From a phage, in sequence record PZ445463.1: DNA of 43,096 nucleotides, one strand, 5' to 3'. Positions within the stretch are counted from its first letter, which is position 1; every line of letters starts with the position of its first letter. This document shows, piece by piece, positions 3,880-37,701 of the stretch. The translations under genes were made by a program, and so were the position numbers. The notes beneath the pieces were generated by a model. That model made no database searches, was not told the origin of the DNA, and saw only the letters and a program-made list of their open reading frames with translations.

Positions 3880-4340
3880 TGATGGGCTTTTTCAAAGTAA
3901 CTGACGTACCGTCTCGTCGCGTAGTCCAGTACGCCCGCGTGTCTGGCTCTGGCGAGAACGTGGTATTTATTGAGGACGAAAGTGTACTCGGTACACCGGT
4001 AGATGATATGCCGTTTGCAGATAAAACCGGTATTGCGTTGCCCGCCGCCGGTATGCTTTATGAAATTCCGTATCTGGCGGACGCTGGCGACGTGTATTTC
4101 TCTGCGCAACCGCAGGACGCTGAACTGGCGGGCGGCAGCGCAACCATCACTGTCGAGGTTAAGGCAGGCAAAGCGCCGTATTCTCTGACCTGGTACAAAG
4201 ACGGTAAGGAAGTGGTGAATGCGCCTGAGGAGGCTCTGTCTCTGACGGTTAATGCGGTCGGCGAATACTTCGTTAAAGTTACTGATGCCGATGGAGTAGA
4301 GGCGGTAAGCAAAGCGGCGAAGGTTACTAAGCCAGAATGA
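3879..4340 (+). CDS. Ig-like domain protein (possible capsid decoration)
   Basis: C-terminal motif KAGKAPYSLTWYKDGKEV...GEYFVKVTDADG resembles bacterial Ig-like fold; paralogous motif in ORF 7341-7685. Confidence 0.55.
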   Translation: MMGFFKVTDVPSRRVVQYARVSGSGENVVFIEDESVLGTPVDDMPFADKTGIALPAAGMLYEIPYLADAGDVYFSAQPQDAELAGGSATITVEVKAGKAPYSLTWYKDGKEVVNAPEEALSLTVNAVGEYFVKVTDADGVEAVSKAAKVTKPE

Positions 4341-4343
4341 TAA

Positions 4344-4370
4344 AAGGCCCCATTATGGGGCCTTAGTTTT
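4344..4370. terminator. Bidirectional terminator between convergent genes
   Basis: aaggcccca-tta-tggggcctt followed by agtttt. Confidence 0.5.
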
Positions 4371-4598: not shown

Positions 4599-4629
4599 GA
4601 ATAGTACCCTATTATATTGGGGTGTGCAA
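4599..4629. repeat. 31-bp exact repeat (second copy at 13124-13154)
   Basis: gaatagtaccctattatattggggtgtgcaa identical at both loci. Confidence 0.9.
4601..4629 (-). promoter_or_regulatory. sigma70-like promoter TTGCAC-N17-TACTAT with embedded GAATAG-N4-CTATT inverted repeat
   Basis: Read on - strand; 31-bp block 4599-4629 identical to 13124-13154; drives gene 4370-4573. Confidence 0.55.
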
Positions 4630-13095: not shown

Positions 13096-13125
13096 TTTAA
13101 ACCCCTTCATTGTTGGTGTAAGCGA

Positions 13126-13154
13126 ATAGTACCCTATTATATTGGGGTGTGCAA
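13126..13154 (-). promoter_or_regulatory. sigma70-like promoter TTGCAC-N17-TACTAT (exact copy of 4601-4629)
   Basis: Identical 31-mer; positioned upstream of reverse-strand island genes. Confidence 0.55.
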
Positions 13155-25903: not shown

Positions 25904-26219
25904 TTCTAAATTCCTTATATTGTTGGGGTATGTGCTTACTATAATAGTCTGCTATTAGGGTGTCAATCTGTTTTATCGAACCAACGACAAAAACATTTGC
26001 GCCACGTTTACGTATACGCTCGTGTTCCCGTAGCTGGTGCGGGTCTGGCTTAGTGTTTTCGTCTTTCTTCACCTCGACGAACCAGACGATGCCGCCGGGT
26101 AGAATTGCCAGCAGGTCAGGAGCGCCTGAACGTCCTTCGTAGGAAAGTTTACGAACGAGGCCACCAATGGCCTCGAATCGCTCTTTTGCGTATTTCTGGA
26201 TGCGGCCCTCTTTAGTCAT
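25887..26219 (-). CDS. VRR-NUC domain nuclease
   Basis: PD-(D/E)XK-like core GAPDLLAILPGGIVWFVEVKKDEN ... QLREHERI. Confidence 0.6.
   Translation of the reverse strand: MTKEGRIQKYAKERFEAIGGLVRKLSYEGRSGAPDLLAILPGGIVWFVEVKKDENTKPDPHQLREHERIRKRGANVFVVGSIKQIDTLIADYYSKHIPQQYKEFRNETRI
25938..25966 (-). promoter_or_regulatory. sigma70-like promoter TTGACA-N17-TATAGT with AATAG-N4-CTATT in spacer
   Basis: Lies within 3' coding end of VRR-NUC gene; upstream of 25712-25903. Confidence 0.45.
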
Positions 26220-30270: not shown

Positions 30271-30299
30271 ACTATAATAGCTAACTATTCAGGTGTCAA
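30271..30299 (-). promoter_or_regulatory. sigma70-like promoter TTGACA-N17-TATAGT with GAATAG-N4-CTATT in spacer
   Basis: -35 and operator half-site overlap the last codons (YLTPE-stop) of ORF 30285-30488; upstream of SSB-like gene. Confidence 0.45.
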
Positions 30300-32570: not shown

Positions 32571-32599
32571 ACTATAATAGCGAACTATTCACATGTCAA
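32571..32599 (-). promoter_or_regulatory. sigma70-like promoter TTGACA-N17-TATAGT with GAATAG-N4-CTATT in spacer
   Basis: Upstream of acidic-protein gene; divergent from the XRE gene. Confidence 0.5.
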
Positions 32600-32615: not shown

Positions 32616-32633
32616 AATTAATATGGTACTATT
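32616..32633 (+). promoter_or_regulatory. Possible extended -10 promoter (TGgTACTAT) with degenerate AATAT-N4-CTATTC repeat, for XRE gene
   Basis: TG-n-TACTAT at 32624-32632; no good -35. Confidence 0.3.
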
Positions 32634-32663
32634 CACATATCAACTGACTAAGGAGTAATTGAC

Positions 32664-32879
32664 ATGCAACCATCTGAACTAGGCATCCGTGTAGAACAAC
32701 GCCGCAAAGAACTCGGCATCTCCCAGCGCCGTTTGGCGGCCCTGACCGGCGTTTCCCAGGGCGCGATTAACCAACTGGCACTTGGAGTAACTCAGGACGT
32801 CCGCCCGGCAACGCTGTTCAAACTGGCGGAAGTTCTGGAAGTAGACGCCAAGTGGCTGGCGTTAGGTGAAGGGGCTTAA
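32664..32879 (+). CDS. XRE-family helix-turn-helix transcriptional regulator (Cro/CI-like)
   Basis: HTH signature ISQRRLAALTGVSQGAINQLALG; AAGGAG SD; isolated + strand gene between two - strand operons; terminator overlapping stop. Confidence 0.75.
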   Translation: MQPSELGIRVEQRRKELGISQRRLAALTGVSQGAINQLALGVTQDVRPATLFKLAEVLEVDAKWLALGEGA

Positions 32880-32896: not shown

Positions 32897-35119
32897 CTAT
32901 TCCAAATCCTCCTCTGTCACCACCAGCATCTCATTTGGTTCGTATAGTGTCTTCGGCCTTAATCTATCCCCTATTCTTTCGGGTATACGATATGTTCTCG
33001 GTACTACTTCGCCGTTAGCATCGCAACCAAGCATTAGTTCTCCATCTTTCAACATTTTATCAAGATGGGTGTTAGTCACAGAGAAGTCACCGGAACGAGC
33101 CACTATCTGCTGCTGAGTAAAACCGCGACCTGTGTCATCTGACTGTTGCAGGTCTTCCAGTGCCGAAAGTATTGACTCCTTCCTTACTTCATCCCTGCCG
33201 CGTTTAACTTCTTCCTTTACTTTTTGCTTACCTTCTTTCGTCAACCCTTCTTCCCGCTCTTTCTCCTCGTCAGTTTTGAACGGCTCGAAACCCCACGGCA
33301 TCAACACAAGCGCCTTGTGTGGTTCAGGAAGGTCCAGGTTTACGATTGTGCCGTATTCTTCTGTGCCCCCCAGGAACTCAACCGCACGGTACTCTTTCGG
33401 CGGCGGAGCTTCGCGGAACTGCACAGACTCCAGCACCATGCCAACCGTTTTCTGTTGAGGACCGTGCTTAAATTTCGAGTGGTATACGTTTATTTGACGG
33501 TCGGTTGCACGTTCGATTGTCAGTTCCACGTCAACACCCGCATACAGCGCCCCACTGCCGCGTGCTTTCTTTCCACCCTTCGGCGTATGGTGGACAACGC
33601 CTACTGCGGCTTTAGTTGCATCGCGTACTTCTTTCAGAATGGCGATAACTTTACCCATGCCGATTGCTGTTGATGAACTGTTCTCGTCGAACTTATCAAT
33701 CGTCAGTGCCAGGGTCTGGTTAAGGGTGTCGAACGCAACCATGCCAATTGGCTCGTCGCCAGCAGTTTCGCGCATTAACTTAATCAGGCTTTTAAGTTTG
33801 CCGACTTCGCCCATATCGATGACGTGTACATAATCTTTACCTTCCCCGCCATATTTAGCCGCTAGTGCATCAATACGGGTGCGTGTAGCTGCGCCACCCT
33901 CACCATCAATATAGAAATGGTGGCAACGCTGGGTATCCGCCCCCGCAAACCTGTACCCGGCGGCGCTGAGGTACATCATCCCCAGCGTATAGAACGATTT
34001 GTACGTGCCAGATTCCCCGACGATATCCCAGATACAATCCGACGGCATGTACCCCTCAACGACGAAATCAGCCTTTACCGGCTCCGGTAACTCGTCCTCC
34101 TCTGAGTCCTCGTCGTCTTCCAGGTCGTCGAGGCTGCAAGTTACTGGGTCCTCGTTCTCTGTGCGGTGTAGTTCTTCAATCTCTTCTTCCGGTAAATCAG
34201 GCAGAGCCGCACGAATGCTGTTAATGCTGATAGGTTGCTTATCTATGTTAAGCTCGTCGGGTAGGCCACACATACGCAGGGCCAAATGCTGCCTACGGTT
34301 AAGCTCGGTGCAAGCGCCGTTGTTTGTATGCTGGCAGACAAAGCGCACTTCTTTACCGTCGAGCATTATGCTGGTGGAGCCCTTGCCTGTATGCAGATGT
34401 TCGTTAGGGCATGGCACTTCGTACCCGCGCCCGGAAGATAAAGCGTCAAGGCCAAGCTCGGCTTCGCAGAAGTGTGCTATATCCGCGTTAAGCCCATGCT
34501 CATCAGCGGCAAGTGTTTTAGCCTCACGCTTACGCAACCCCATCTCTTCGGCTTTCTTGATGTACCGCTCAGCACGGATAACACGCCCTTCTGTAACCGT
34601 TATCTTCGACTCTTTATGCGGCAGGTAGATAAGGCGGTTGCCGTCTTCTGTGCAGTGGTCGCGCAACGCTTCGTCTATTTCTAACTCTGCACAAATAGCA
34701 CGTTGCACCATCCACGCGTCGTTAGAGTTAAACGGCGTGCGAGCTGGAACCAGAACGCGGAAAGCGTAATCTCCATTTTTACATGCGTGCTGATGCGATG
34801 CCGTTGTGTGCAGAATATTGAAGAACGGCGCGTTCTTGAATTTGCGTGTCAGGTCGCGGTACTGAGTACGGTTGAGATGGTCGAAATCGAACTTAACCAC
34901 ACTGTCTTCCAGGATAGCGTTTTTACGGCGACCACCAACAGGCGCAATAGCTTTCTGTTTAATCTTGGCAGCGTCGTACTCTTCCTTAGTCCATGACGGG
35001 TCCACGGATAAACGCTTCGATGTATCGCAGACATACTCGACAAACTGCTCCAGCGGCATTTCACGCGCTACAGGGTTTTTATCGAATGTGTTACGCAGCG
35101 TTGCAAAAACAATATTCAT
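32897..35119 (-). CDS. Putative DNA primase/helicase-like replication protein
   Basis: 740 aa; P-loop-like GESGTYKSF in C-terminal half; acidic linker; assignment by size and context only. Confidence 0.45.
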   Translation of the reverse strand: MNIVFATLRNTFDKNPVAREMPLEQFVEYVCDTSKRLSVDPSWTKEEYDAAKIKQKAIAPVGGRRKNAILEDSVVKFDFDHLNRTQYRDLTRKFKNAPFFNILHTTASHQHACKNGDYAFRVLVPARTPFNSNDAWMVQRAICAELEIDEALRDHCTEDGNRLIYLPHKESKITVTEGRVIRAERYIKKAEEMGLRKREAKTLAADEHGLNADIAHFCEAELGLDALSSGRGYEVPCPNEHLHTGKGSTSIMLDGKEVRFVCQHTNNGACTELNRRQHLALRMCGLPDELNIDKQPISINSIRAALPDLPEEEIEELHRTENEDPVTCSLDDLEDDEDSEEDELPEPVKADFVVEGYMPSDCIWDIVGESGTYKSFYTLGMMYLSAAGYRFAGADTQRCHHFYIDGEGGAATRTRIDALAAKYGGEGKDYVHVIDMGEVGKLKSLIKLMRETAGDEPIGMVAFDTLNQTLALTIDKFDENSSSTAIGMGKVIAILKEVRDATKAAVGVVHHTPKGGKKARGSGALYAGVDVELTIERATDRQINVYHSKFKHGPQQKTVGMVLESVQFREAPPPKEYRAVEFLGGTEEYGTIVNLDLPEPHKALVLMPWGFEPFKTDEEKEREEGLTKEGKQKVKEEVKRGRDEVRKESILSALEDLQQSDDTGRGFTQQQIVARSGDFSVTNTHLDKMLKDGELMLGCDANGEVVPRTYRIPERIGDRLRPKTLYEPNEMLVVTEEDLE

Positions 35120-35244: not shown

Positions 35245-35313
35245 TGTATAATCCTTGTGCTTACTTTGATGATTTGTGCTTTGGCCCCGACGTTCTTGCG
35301 TTGGGGTTTCTTT

Positions 35314-35604
35314 TTACCGTTTAGCCAACCCTTCCAGCAAATTTTTATACTCTTCAAAATATTCCTCGACCAAATCATCGCCGAAATAGAAGTCGATATA
35401 CTCGAGATTATCTCTTACGTTAAGCGATGCCGACATGGTGCTTAGTTGGCGTAAGCTAATTAGCTTCATTTCTGTTTCTACGCAGAAAGGCCGGTAGGTA
35501 TCAAGATGGCAAGAGATATTGAAGCATAAAGCGAACTCTCCGGCCACGGAGTGAACCATATACACTTCGTTTTCTGCTTTATTGTGGAAAATTACGCCTT
35601 TCAT
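35314..35604 (-). CDS. Hypothetical 96 aa protein
   Basis: ORF coupled to upstream HTH gene. Confidence 0.5.
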   Translation of the reverse strand: MKGVIFHNKAENEVYMVHSVAGEFALCFNISCHLDTYRPFCVETEMKLISLRQLSTMSASLNVRDNLEYIDFYFGDDLVEEYFEEYKNLLEGLAKR

Positions 35605-35786
35605 TTCACGTTCTCCTTAATCCATGCTTCGACTTTATTACGGTCAAATGTTCCCGGTAAACGGCGGCCCATAACCTTAATACAGCAGTCAGGGAATTTG
35701 CCGCTGCGCAACCAGTTATTAATGGTCTGACGTGTCACCCCGATACGCTCGGCTACCTCATTCTGTGTCATGTAATGTTGCATTTT
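35601..35786 (-). CDS. Small HTH DNA-binding protein (AlpA/excisionase-like fold)
   Basis: MTQNEVAERIGVTRQTINNWLRSGKFP; start at internal ATG 35786 with GGGGA SD; first gene after - strand promoter 35815-35843. Confidence 0.6.
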   Translation of the reverse strand, partial: KMQHYMTQNEVAERIGVTRQTINNWLRSGKFPDCCIKVMGRRLPGTFDRNKVEAWIKENVK

Positions 35787-35814: not shown

Positions 35815-35843
35815 AGTATAGGATAGCGGGAATGTAAAAGCAA
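35815..35843 (-). promoter_or_regulatory. sigma70-like promoter TTGCTT-N17-TATACT (leftward, HTH/primase operon)
   Basis: Read on - strand; about 30 nt upstream of ATG 35786. Confidence 0.45.
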
Positions 35844-35880
35844 CCAATCCCTGCAATATTTAATCTTTACAAAAAAGTTA

Positions 35881-35910
35881 TTGAAAGTTCTTGACACATG
35901 TTTGTATAAT
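35881..35910 (+). promoter_or_regulatory. sigma70-like promoter TTGAAA-N18-TATAAT (rightward)
   Basis: Consensus -10 TATAAT at 35905-35910; back-to-back with the leftward promoter. Confidence 0.5.
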
Positions 35911-35936
35911 GGTTTTGGGACTTGTATATATTACGG

Positions 35937-35969
35937 AGTTGACGAACCCTCCCCGAGGGATTCGTCAAC
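35937..35969 (+). other. Strong hairpin gttgacgaa-ccctcc..gaggga-ttcgtcaac
   Basis: 9-bp perfect outer stem plus inner ccctc/gaggg pairing. Confidence 0.5.
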
Positions 35970-36109
35970 CCCTCCCAGACAGCTGAGATGCTTGCCTTGT
36001 GGTTTAAGGATAAGTGTATCTAAATCTCATTTAAAGAAGTAACCCGCTGAAATATCTACTGTTTCTTAATGTGCCGTAGATTCGCAACCGTAAAAATGTA
36101 ACGATTATT

Positions 36110-36137
36110 GGGCAGGCTTAGGGCCTGCCCTTTAGTT
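36110..36137 (+). terminator. Terminator ending the short non-coding unit
   Basis: gggcaggc-ttagg-gcctgccc then tttagtt. Confidence 0.5.
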
Positions 36138-36202
36138 ACCAAGTAATAAGAATAAAGGCACAACAGTTTCGAAAGAATCACAACGGCAACGTAACTATTC
36201 TC

Positions 36203-36231
36203 TTGCACACCCCAACATAATAGGATACTAT
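36203..36231 (+). promoter_or_regulatory. sigma70-like promoter TTGCAC-N17-TACTAT with TAATAG-N4-CTATTC inverted repeat
   Basis: Two mismatches from the 31-mer family; followed by conserved AACGAGA leader and SD of first early gene. Confidence 0.55.
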
Positions 36232-36265
36232 TCACTTATCGAAACGAGACAGAGGAGTGAAGGTT

Positions 36266-37349: not shown

Positions 37350-37463
37350 TTTAAGATTTTACTGAGTGACTTACGCTGCTACACAGCAGCGTATCATTTT
37401 TCTCATTTTTGTTCTATTTCACCAAACGCAACAATCGAAGCGACTATTGCAGGAGATGCAACA

Positions 37464-37562: not shown

Positions 37563-37641
37563 TGGCGTCAGTGGGCACGACGCCCGAGGTACTACTGGAT
37601 TAGTGGAGAACGATTATCTTTAAAACACCAATAAAATTTAC

Positions 37642-37670
37642 TTGCACACTGTGATAGAATAGGCTACTAT
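37642..37670 (+). promoter_or_regulatory. sigma70-like promoter TTGCAC-N17-TACTAT with GAATAG-N4-CTATTC inverted repeat
   Basis: Same architecture and AACGAGA leader; upstream of 37702 ORF. Confidence 0.5.
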
Positions 37671-37701
37671 TCATTTACACAAACGAGAGGAGAGACAGAA
37701 G

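Follow-up and report, generated by a model that had tools for sequence, protein, structure and literature searches.

A non-coding unit in the genome of Escherichia phage SonjaBuckley_Bas74 (genus Kagunavirus, subfamily Guernseyvirinae) is described here. Its 3' half changes in step with a winged-helix cassette in a helicase-primase encoded 3 kb away. From comparison of sequences, the unit may be the replication-origin region of the Guernseyvirinae, built as a transcription-activated origin, and we give this reading slightly less than an even chance. The window, that is, the whole stretch of 43,096 nucleotides analysed, is the complete genome of this phage (PQ850627.1; a window coordinate is the record coordinate minus 538). 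The unit starts at a strong rightward promoter, P_A, and consists of a 5' module A with a long stem-loop and a 3' module B with a GC-rich hairpin between AT-rich arms. On its left runs a leftward operon, whose first gene (35601-35783) encodes a 60-residue helix-turn-helix (HTH) protein of the excisionase family and which also contains the 740-residue helicase-primase. On its right, a long rightward array of small early, lysis and structural genes begins, led by a promoter of its own, P_C.

The comparison covered 38 distinct regions homologous to the unit, drawn from GenBank, IMG/VR and metagenomes. One metagenome project supplied most of the sampled contigs, and a metagenome scan with a 16-base pattern returned mostly chance matches and four true homologues. 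All 38 regions contain, in the same order, a sigma-70 promoter, 234-302 nt without a conserved open reading frame (ORF) on either strand, a long 5' stem-loop, and a GC hairpin with a U-rich 3' flank; in almost all of them the element CACAACGGCAACGTAAC and the promoter P_C follow 3' of the hairpin. An earlier note on this DNA had named conservation in related phages as a test of its prediction, and the layout is indeed found in every one of these sequences. The sequence from promoter to hairpin is a mosaic and is not conserved as a whole. The 5' module occurs in five unrelated types (A1 in Bas74, A2-A5 elsewhere) and the 3' module in three (B1 in Bas74 and Salmonella phages, B2 in K1G, B3 in Golestan-like phages). 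The combinations A1B1, A2B1, A2B2, A3B1, A4B2, A4B3, A5B1, A5B2 and A5B3 were seen, and the HTH protein is identical across A1B1, A5B2 and A5B3.

The partner of module B in this mosaic lies in the helicase-primase gene (32897-35119, minus strand; 740 amino acids). The protein has an AAA_25 core at residues 345-516 and, C-terminal to this helicase core, a cassette with a winged-helix nucleic-acid-binding fold, which is of type alpha in Bas74 (residues 633-721; 32957-33223, minus strand). A sequence search of the PDB with the helicase-primase gave nothing significant. In 36 E. coli-phage contigs, the cassette and the module are combined as alpha-B1 (12), beta-B2 (15), gamma-B3 (7) and gamma-B1 (2), and their adjusted mutual information is 0.85. 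The same measure is 0.44-0.48 for physically adjacent pairs of segments and 0.01-0.25 for the cassette with the intervening HTH gene, helicase N-terminal domain and module A. When the contigs were collapsed to distinct intervening contexts, 13 of 14 were concordant, against a chance rate of 0.37 (rough P of 2e-5). The GenBank records show the same association: all 32 records with B2 carry beta, the 20 records with B3 are exactly the 20 gamma records, and the 61 alpha records of E. coli phages are absent from both the B2 and the B3 list, with B1 seen in at least 26.

The genes around these two segments do not follow module B. Neither the flanks on the cassette side (exonuclease, gp46, gp47 and an XRE-like ORF directly beside the cassette) nor those on the side of module B (gp55-59) partition by B type. 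The XRE-like ORF was tried as the co-varying partner and rejected, since it is 92-100% conserved (78% in one contig) whatever the B type. Residues 1-300 of the helicase-primase (34220-35119, minus strand) exist in two unrelated forms of 16-18% identity, which begin MNIVFATLRN... or MSDVILSYSW... and reassort independently of the helicase core and the C-terminal cassette. Two cassettes that lie 3 kb apart and are matched while the segments between them reassort bear the signature of a protein domain and its cognate site.

Because the half of the unit that holds the hairpin changes in step with the DNA-binding tip of the helicase, an origin is a more likely identity for it than a free-standing regulatory RNA. 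Besides this co-variation, the origin reading draws on the architecture of the P4 alpha and pRN1 ORF904 proteins and on a likeness to the origin of pRN1. The unit adjoins the replication operon at the divergence point, with AT-rich arms (GC 0.30-0.36) flanking GC hairpins, and its promoter fires into a non-coding AT-rich segment (GC 0.30-0.38, against 0.51 for the genome) beside replication genes. We infer that module B is a binding site of the winged-helix domain, that the unit is an origin, and that its RNA helps to open or prime it.

A sequence of events can be proposed on these grounds. On DNA entry, host RNA polymerase would start at the strong and apparently unregulated P_A, and would transcribe the structured 5' stem-loop of module A and then an AT-rich stretch before reaching module B. 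Module B, a GC hairpin with highly conserved AT-rich arms, would be the cognate site of the C-terminal winged helix of the helicase-primase. Transcription into it would open the duplex, and the transcript, ending or pausing at the hairpin and its U-rich tail, might be left as an R-loop or primer; loading of the helicase-primase and the start of leading-strand synthesis would then be possible. Besides, the hairpin of module B would shield the regulated promoter P_C from read-through. In a bolder version, to which only small credence is given, the winged helix would recognise not duplex DNA but the nascent P_A transcript, by its 3' hairpin and arms. Helicase loading would then be RNA-guided, a single early RNA would at once specify the origin, form the R-loop and provide the primer, and its B module would be exchanged together with the cassette as a specificity pair.

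P4 alpha and pRN1 ORF904 are origin-binding initiators in which a helicase is followed by a C-terminal winged helix (PMC2777425). The pRN1 origin is a stem-loop of about 100 nt, conserved in structure and variable in sequence, with conserved flanks, and proteins of the primase-helicase-winged-helix kind have been proposed to assemble at such stem-loops, also in some phages (PMC4234260). The helicase-primase of Bas74 resembles both proteins in placing a helicase core and then a C-terminal winged helix on one polypeptide, and the pRN1 origin resembles the hairpin of module A together with the flanks in module B. The large, structure-conserved stem-loop of pRN1 may have its counterpart in module A of the relatives; that of Bas74 is shorter, about 38-60 nt. 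The differences are also considerable, however. The helicase core here is AAA_25 (RepA/DnaB-like) and not of superfamily 3, no sequence similarity was detected between the helicase-primase and P4 alpha or ORF904, no iterons of the P4 type were found in the unit, and the strong promoter that feeds the Bas74 element is not a feature of the pRN1 origin.

Transcription also enters other origins with which the unit may be compared. The primary origin of phage T7 consists of the promoters phi1.1A and phi1.1B and an AT-rich region, the oriF and oriG origins of phage T4 consist of a promoter and a downstream unwinding element and use an R-loop primer, and ColE1 has an RNA-primed origin with RNA II. 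As in these three systems, a promoter here reads into a non-coding AT-rich segment by replication genes, and gives a transcript without coding function. A further likeness to ColE1 is the structured 5' part of the RNA, which varies from one related replicon to the next. Unlike all three, the Bas74 element has a GC hairpin inside it. Bas74 uses the host sigma-70 polymerase, whereas T7 uses a phage polymerase and T4 a phage-modified middle promoter, and specificity apparently lies here in the winged helix of the helicase-primase, a domain missing from T7 and T4. The lambdoid phages have their origin, with its iterons, inside the O gene, so that the linkage of initiator and site is physical. The present pair is similar to O and its origin in that the DNA-binding part of an initiator and its cognate site would be matched, exchangeable alleles in a mosaic group of phages, but its partners are separated by 3 kb of segments that reassort freely.

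The unit of Bas74 can be followed from 5' to 3' along the plus strand. P_A (TTGAAA-N18-TATAAT, 35881-35910, 11 of 12 positions matching) would start transcription near 35917. The 5' structured domain of module A1 then covers 35917-35976, and its main hairpin, placed by the earlier note at 35937-35969, has its arms at 35935-35949 and 35958-35972 and a folding energy of -23.2 kcal/mol (RNAfold). The rest of A1, or a linker, follows at 35977-36046 (AT-rich, GC 0.38). It contains the weakly conserved motifs TCTCATT and ATATCTACTG, with TCTATT and AAGTnnCTGAT as the corresponding motifs in other types, and a small second hairpin that is not kept in contig L019. The boundary of modules A and B falls after CTGAT/CTACTG. 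The left arm of module B1 (36047-36109, GC 0.33) is present in a single copy in the genome and is nearly invariant across E. coli and Salmonella phages; its motif TGCCGTAGATTC at 36072-36083 has a degenerate form common to B1, B2, B3 and B4. The terminator-like GC hairpin GGGCAGGC-TTAGG-GCCTGCCC (36110-36130) has 9 bp, 7 of them GC pairs, and an energy of -17.1 kcal/mol, and it can be extended to an imperfect palindrome of about 42 nt (36098-36139). The right arm (36131-36176) begins with a weak U-tract, TTTAGTT, and continues as an AT-rich segment with a GC of 0.30. Between module B and P_C lies the conserved element ATCACAACGGCAACGTAAC (36177-36195), which is unique in the genome, invariant in a seven-phage alignment, and kept in phage SE2 despite deletion of the adjacent promoter. 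It is not universal, since the Salmonella contigs L199 and L200 lack it.

The hairpin of module B was described in the earlier note as a terminator at 36110-36137. A GC hairpin is found there with TTTAGTTACC directly 3' of it, but its terminator character is weak: in the terminator scan B1 (UUUAGUU) passes lenient criteria with 5 T in 8, B3 passes narrowly, and B2 fails. The description of the region as devoid of a gene is upheld. No plus-strand ORF of at least 20 amino acids starts inside 35917-36137, and ATG or GTG ORFs of at least 12 amino acids are absent from the unit on either strand; the ORF of about 11 codons given as the longest corresponds to an ATG ORF of 11 codons at 35989. GenBank lists two coding sequences in the unit, Bas74_0053 (33 amino acids, TTG start, 35867-35968, minus strand) and Bas74_0054 (59 amino acids, GTG start, 36056-36235, minus strand). 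They are probably artefacts of gene calling and not genes, because the relatives have indels of 1 nt and 10 nt or unrelated modules at these places.

Structure appears to be kept in both halves of the unit while sequence is exchanged. The 224-nt stretch of Bas74 folds better than its shuffles (z = -4.4), alike on both strands. In every A module a long irregular hairpin lies just 3' of the start site despite the unrelated sequences, and in alignments of A modules, whether of one type or across types, compensatory changes and invariant G-U pairs are seen. The plus strand of the 5' domain folds better than the minus strand in 32 of the 38 sequences, by 8-13 kcal/mol in A5, which speaks for a constraint on the single-stranded form of the plus strand, most simply RNA. 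This asymmetry is confined to the 5' domain, and none is seen in the folding energy of the whole unit. The stem of module B is likewise retained, by a compensated change from C-G to U-A in L005 and L039, a G-U pair in L019 and replacement of the whole stem in B2, while the loop varies freely. Between E. coli and Salmonella phages, whose helicases are only 53-70% identical, B1 keeps about 95% identity, with differences limited to the hairpin loop and one compensated stem pair. The analysis of structure and covariance that the earlier note had called for gives compensatory changes in the 5' domains of relatives and in the stem of module B, but A1 of Bas74 varies too little for structural constraint on it to be tested.

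The promoters around the unit are also as the earlier note had described them. The back-to-back pair comprises P_A and, on the minus strand, the promoter of the HTH/helicase-primase operon (TTGCTT-N17-TATACT, 35815-35843), which matches at 8 of 12 positions, below the threshold of the scan, and whose position is kept in relatives (for example TTGATT-N17-TATACT in SE2). The separate promoter of the first rightward genes, P_C (TTGCAC-N17-TACTAT, 36203-36231, plus strand), is present and belongs to a family of repeated motifs. A -35/-10 pair stands at the position of P_A in all 38 regions, with a spacer that differs completely among module types, while the HTH protein is 80-100% conserved. Promoter matches of 11 in 12 number four in the 43-kb genome on both strands, and P_A is the only one of them without the palindrome AATAG-N4-CTATT, which is conserved in other promoters. 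As a class, promoter-like sites in the region are at expectation (4 found against 4.2 expected from shuffles), and terminator-like sites are likewise not enriched over shuffles. What stands above chance is the quality of P_A as a promoter and its conservation.

Several observations weigh against an origin at this place. Co-variation by itself is not binding, and the sampled genomes are phylogenetically related. The matching has four exceptions, all of them with B1, namely the two gamma-B1 contigs (3300045988_006673 and 3300045988_013455 in IMG/VR) and two beta-B1 phages in GenBank (PQ429079 and OR594180). The Pfam scan of the helicase-primase found AAA_25 only and no primase match, its name being that of a PHROG family. 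The unit is no richer in AT than other promoter regions, iterons or tandem repeats were not found in B1, and no site like a DnaA box was noticed in an inspection made by eye only. GC skew is uninformative, because the cumulative minimum at about 36 kb falls exactly on the switch in gene orientation and the maximum on the other such switch. Constraint at the RNA level is shown in relatives only, because the two strands of the 5' domain of Bas74 fold about equally well (-39.4 kcal/mol for plus and -37.7 for minus). Finally, the Salmonella contigs L199 and L200 are without B1, the element CACAACGG and P_C, and carry a further hairpin module, B4, only; this loss is apparently a deletion between B1 and B4 repeats.

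The earlier note had suggested a small regulatory RNA or an attenuated leader for the function of the unit, and both suggestions can be weighed against an origin. If the unit encoded a stand-alone immediate-early RNA, this would measure about 215-220 nt in Bas74 (230-300 nt in the relatives) and work in trans through its shape, for instance in binding or titrating a protein of host or phage; the RNA would be stabilised by its 5' and 3' hairpins, and the diversity of modules would reflect an arms race. This would suit a strong promoter without a conserved operator, a downstream hairpin with a U-rich tail, the lack of an ORF, the presence of the unit in every relative examined and the separate promoter of the next genes, as well as the compensatory changes, invariant G-U pairs and plus-strand-specific stability of the 5' domain in relatives. 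Such an RNA is nevertheless judged unlikely. It has no Rfam family (there were no matches in the window at gathering thresholds, and the best below them, at 19-20 bits, fell on the terminator-like hairpin only) and no host homologue: no homology to E. coli genomes was found, and the single plasmid match is probably a mis-filed phage. A conserved seed is also missing, because A1-A5 and B1-B3 are unrelated in sequence and freely combined. The U-tail UUUAGUU is short instead of a long poly-U as in small RNAs of the Hfq type, and the B2 hairpin fails the terminator scan. Pairing with the leaders of the HTH gene and P_C is at chance level in seven phages (p 0.04-0.86; 0.37 and 0.86 in Bas74), and the tracking of the winged-helix cassette by module B would have no explanation. 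Antisense action through a 16-nt repeat at 36052-36067 on the ribosome-binding site of the HTH gene was rejected as chance (p about 0.37), with nothing consistent in other module types, and an RNAduplex scan against all translation-initiation regions was dropped because it returned unrealistic long-loop duplexes. No tRNA or tmRNA was found in the window.

As a leader, the unit would be promoter-proximal and terminated, like lambda P_R'-t_R' (6S RNA or StxS), the AlpA-controlled alpB leader or HK022 put. P_A would be the main rightward promoter, and transcription would end at the hairpin as long as neither a phage factor nor the 5' RNA structure had made the polymerase resistant to termination; a resistant polymerase could read through into about 30 kb of co-oriented early, lysis and structural genes. 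The likeness to P_R'-t_R' and to AlpA leaders (PMC7969949) is the layout of a short non-coding transcription unit, with a strong promoter, a terminator close by and a long co-oriented gene array downstream. Here, too, a strong constitutive promoter and a terminator-like hairpin stand in front of all the plus-strand genes, there are more terminators downstream (one of them at 37372-37393), conserved RNA structure follows right after the promoter as in put with its two specific stem-loops, and a small excisionase/AlpA-like HTH gene is adjacent; AlpA and Q act at promoters followed by terminators (PMC7969949). We hold such a leader to be decidedly unlikely, since a conserved, independent and separately regulated promoter, P_C, stands between the hairpin and the first gene, and neither a conserved alternative structure nor a leader-peptide logic, as an attenuated leader would have, was found. 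The P_A spacer, where a site for Q or AlpA would be expected, contains no conserved antiterminator-binding element, even though the HTH protein is identical across A1-B1, A5-B2 and A5-B3. This protein (HTH_17; TIGR01764, excisionase family) has no Pfam match to AlpA (E <= 0.01) and no AlpA structure in a PDB sequence search; with the unconserved spacer, this led to the rejection of antitermination by it in the manner of AlpA. A Pfam scan of eight neighbouring proteins showed no Q-like gene, the terminator features of the hairpin are weak and vary between types, and the co-variation of cassette and module B is again left unexplained.

The co-variation itself would also be expected if the winged helix bound module B, as DNA or as nascent RNA hairpin, for transcriptional control and the origin lay elsewhere. 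Early-gene expression or termination at the hairpin may in that case be coupled to the level of the replication protein; module B lies 70 nt upstream of P_C, and replication initiators often double as regulators. This is considered very unlikely, because the helicase operon has its promoter outside module B, no rival candidate for the origin was noticed, and the combination of helicase and C-terminal winged helix binds the origin in P4 alpha and has been proposed to do so in pRN1. Finally, the region might be nothing more than a divergent promoter region in which the promoter is spurious or dispensable and the terminator serves as insulation, the co-variation being a by-product of population structure. 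The chance-level numbers of promoter-like and terminator-like sites and the origin of most contigs in one project would agree with this. It is hardly credible, however, when promoter, hairpins and order of elements are kept across five unrelated 5' and three unrelated 3' modules, when B1 is far more conserved than the coding sequence around it, and when the association holds in independent GenBank isolates from many countries, with flanking genes that show no such partition.

On the whole, the anatomy given in the earlier note stands, and the function it proposed has no specific support. The co-variation of the 3' half with the cassette instead points to a cis-acting replication element, as far as the compared genomes tell, and the transcript may matter as an origin-activating or primer RNA.

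P_C belongs to a wider set of promoters in this genome. Its repeated motif has 7 matches with at most 3 mismatches, against 0.04 expected, and the 32-nt form occurs in four near-identical copies upstream of genes. The palindrome of P_C, AATAGGATACTATT (36219-36232), is one of 7 exact AATAG-N4-CTATT palindromes, against 0.02 expected. The others are at 4600-4613, 13125-13138, 25943-25956, 30276-30289, 32576-32589 and 37658-37671, with a variant at 32618-32635. The six whose context was inspected are all inside promoters: four in TTGCAC-N17-TACTAT promoters before small genes or morons, and two in the spacer of strong leftward TTGACA-N17-TATAGT promoters of replication genes. The seventh, at 25943, overlaps a further leftward promoter of 11 in 12 matches. 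These promoters look like one operator-controlled regulon. In the record of phage fBC-Eco01, a predicted promoter, a terminator and a 'phage promoter' are annotated at the positions equivalent to the Bas74 unit and nothing further; the last is the PHIRE annotation of the P_C motif. These phages encode no RNA polymerase, despite this label. Phages of the SE2 type were considered as a natural deletion of P_C that would force read-through from P_A, and this was rejected because another promoter of the palindrome type lies further downstream.

A candidate regulator of the palindrome promoters is the XRE-like protein, encoded by an unannotated ORF of 71 amino acids (32664-32879, plus strand) that starts MQPSELGIRVEQRRKELGISQRRLAALTGVSQGAINQLALGV and appears by eye to have an HTH of the Cro/CI (XRE) type. 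Both a good Shine-Dalgarno sequence and a palindrome-type promoter of its own (32618-32635) belong to the ORF. Every E. coli-phage contig examined has an intact copy, with an identity of 92-100% in nearly all and 78% in one, and identity to the versions in Salmonella phages is about 48%; at its place GenBank has a minus-strand ORF of 31 amino acids (Bas74_0048). In the rightward early region, a clean intrinsic terminator (37372-37393, plus strand) follows the DUF551 gene, and a second promoter of the P_C type (37640-37673, plus strand) comes after it, so that the region is seemingly cut into short, separately promoted operons. In the leftward operon, a plus-strand terminator-like hairpin of 11 bp (35283-35308), followed by TCTTTTTACC, lies between the gp51-like and gp50-like genes, and its counterpart in fBC-Eco01 is annotated as a terminator on both strands.

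Further variation of the 3' modules was seen in relatives. In the jerseyviruses, B1 is followed in tandem by a paralogous second module with a hairpin, B4 (AAATGCCGAAAGATTC...GCACTTGCCTTACGGCAAGCGC...AAGAATAGAAAGGCAC; SE2, contig L006, 840-1000). In SE2 and Ent2 the tandem B1 and B4 share the motifs GCCGnAGATTC and AAGAATAnAAAGGCAC, and the B4 hairpin is followed on its 3' side by TTACCTGA. In several Salmonella phage records no gene is annotated across this B1/B4 region of about 1 kb, although SE2 has a homologue of the first early gene (MFKRGQLL...). A (CTCA)n repeat of about 3 to 7 copies, depending on the phage, is found in module B3 (contig L014, about 4330-4365, and other Golestan-like loci), with a (CGTTT)-like repeat on the other side of the hairpin. 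Three Salmonella phage records, NC_073201 (dunkel), MT074481 (sidste) and NC_073172 (skrot), start or end within the non-coding region, at different positions within about 160 bp. These ends probably reflect manual re-orientation of the assemblies, and physical ends are possible too.

No description of this element or of a Guernseyvirinae origin was found in the searchable literature, and no experimentally defined origin of the subfamily was found. The sole transcriptome study of a close relative, phage K1B4, analysed annotated genes only and includes the HTH gene among the early genes (PMC12645636). K1B4 (OQ696342) shares the A1-B1 type of unit with Bas74, and the two units are 94-97% identical.

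The Guernseyvirinae include Kagunavirus and Jerseyvirus, with hundreds of sequenced phages of E. coli and Salmonella; many have been proposed for therapy, and some are chassis in synthetic biology. If the origin reading is true, the origin of these phages would be located to about 130 bp, and its specificity determinant would be an 89-residue winged-helix cassette. It would also explain why the intergenic region is a recombination hot spot, and would supply a rule for viable chimeric genomes, in which module B and the cassette must match. More generally, a non-coding element can be matched to its partner protein by co-variation across a population of mosaic phages.

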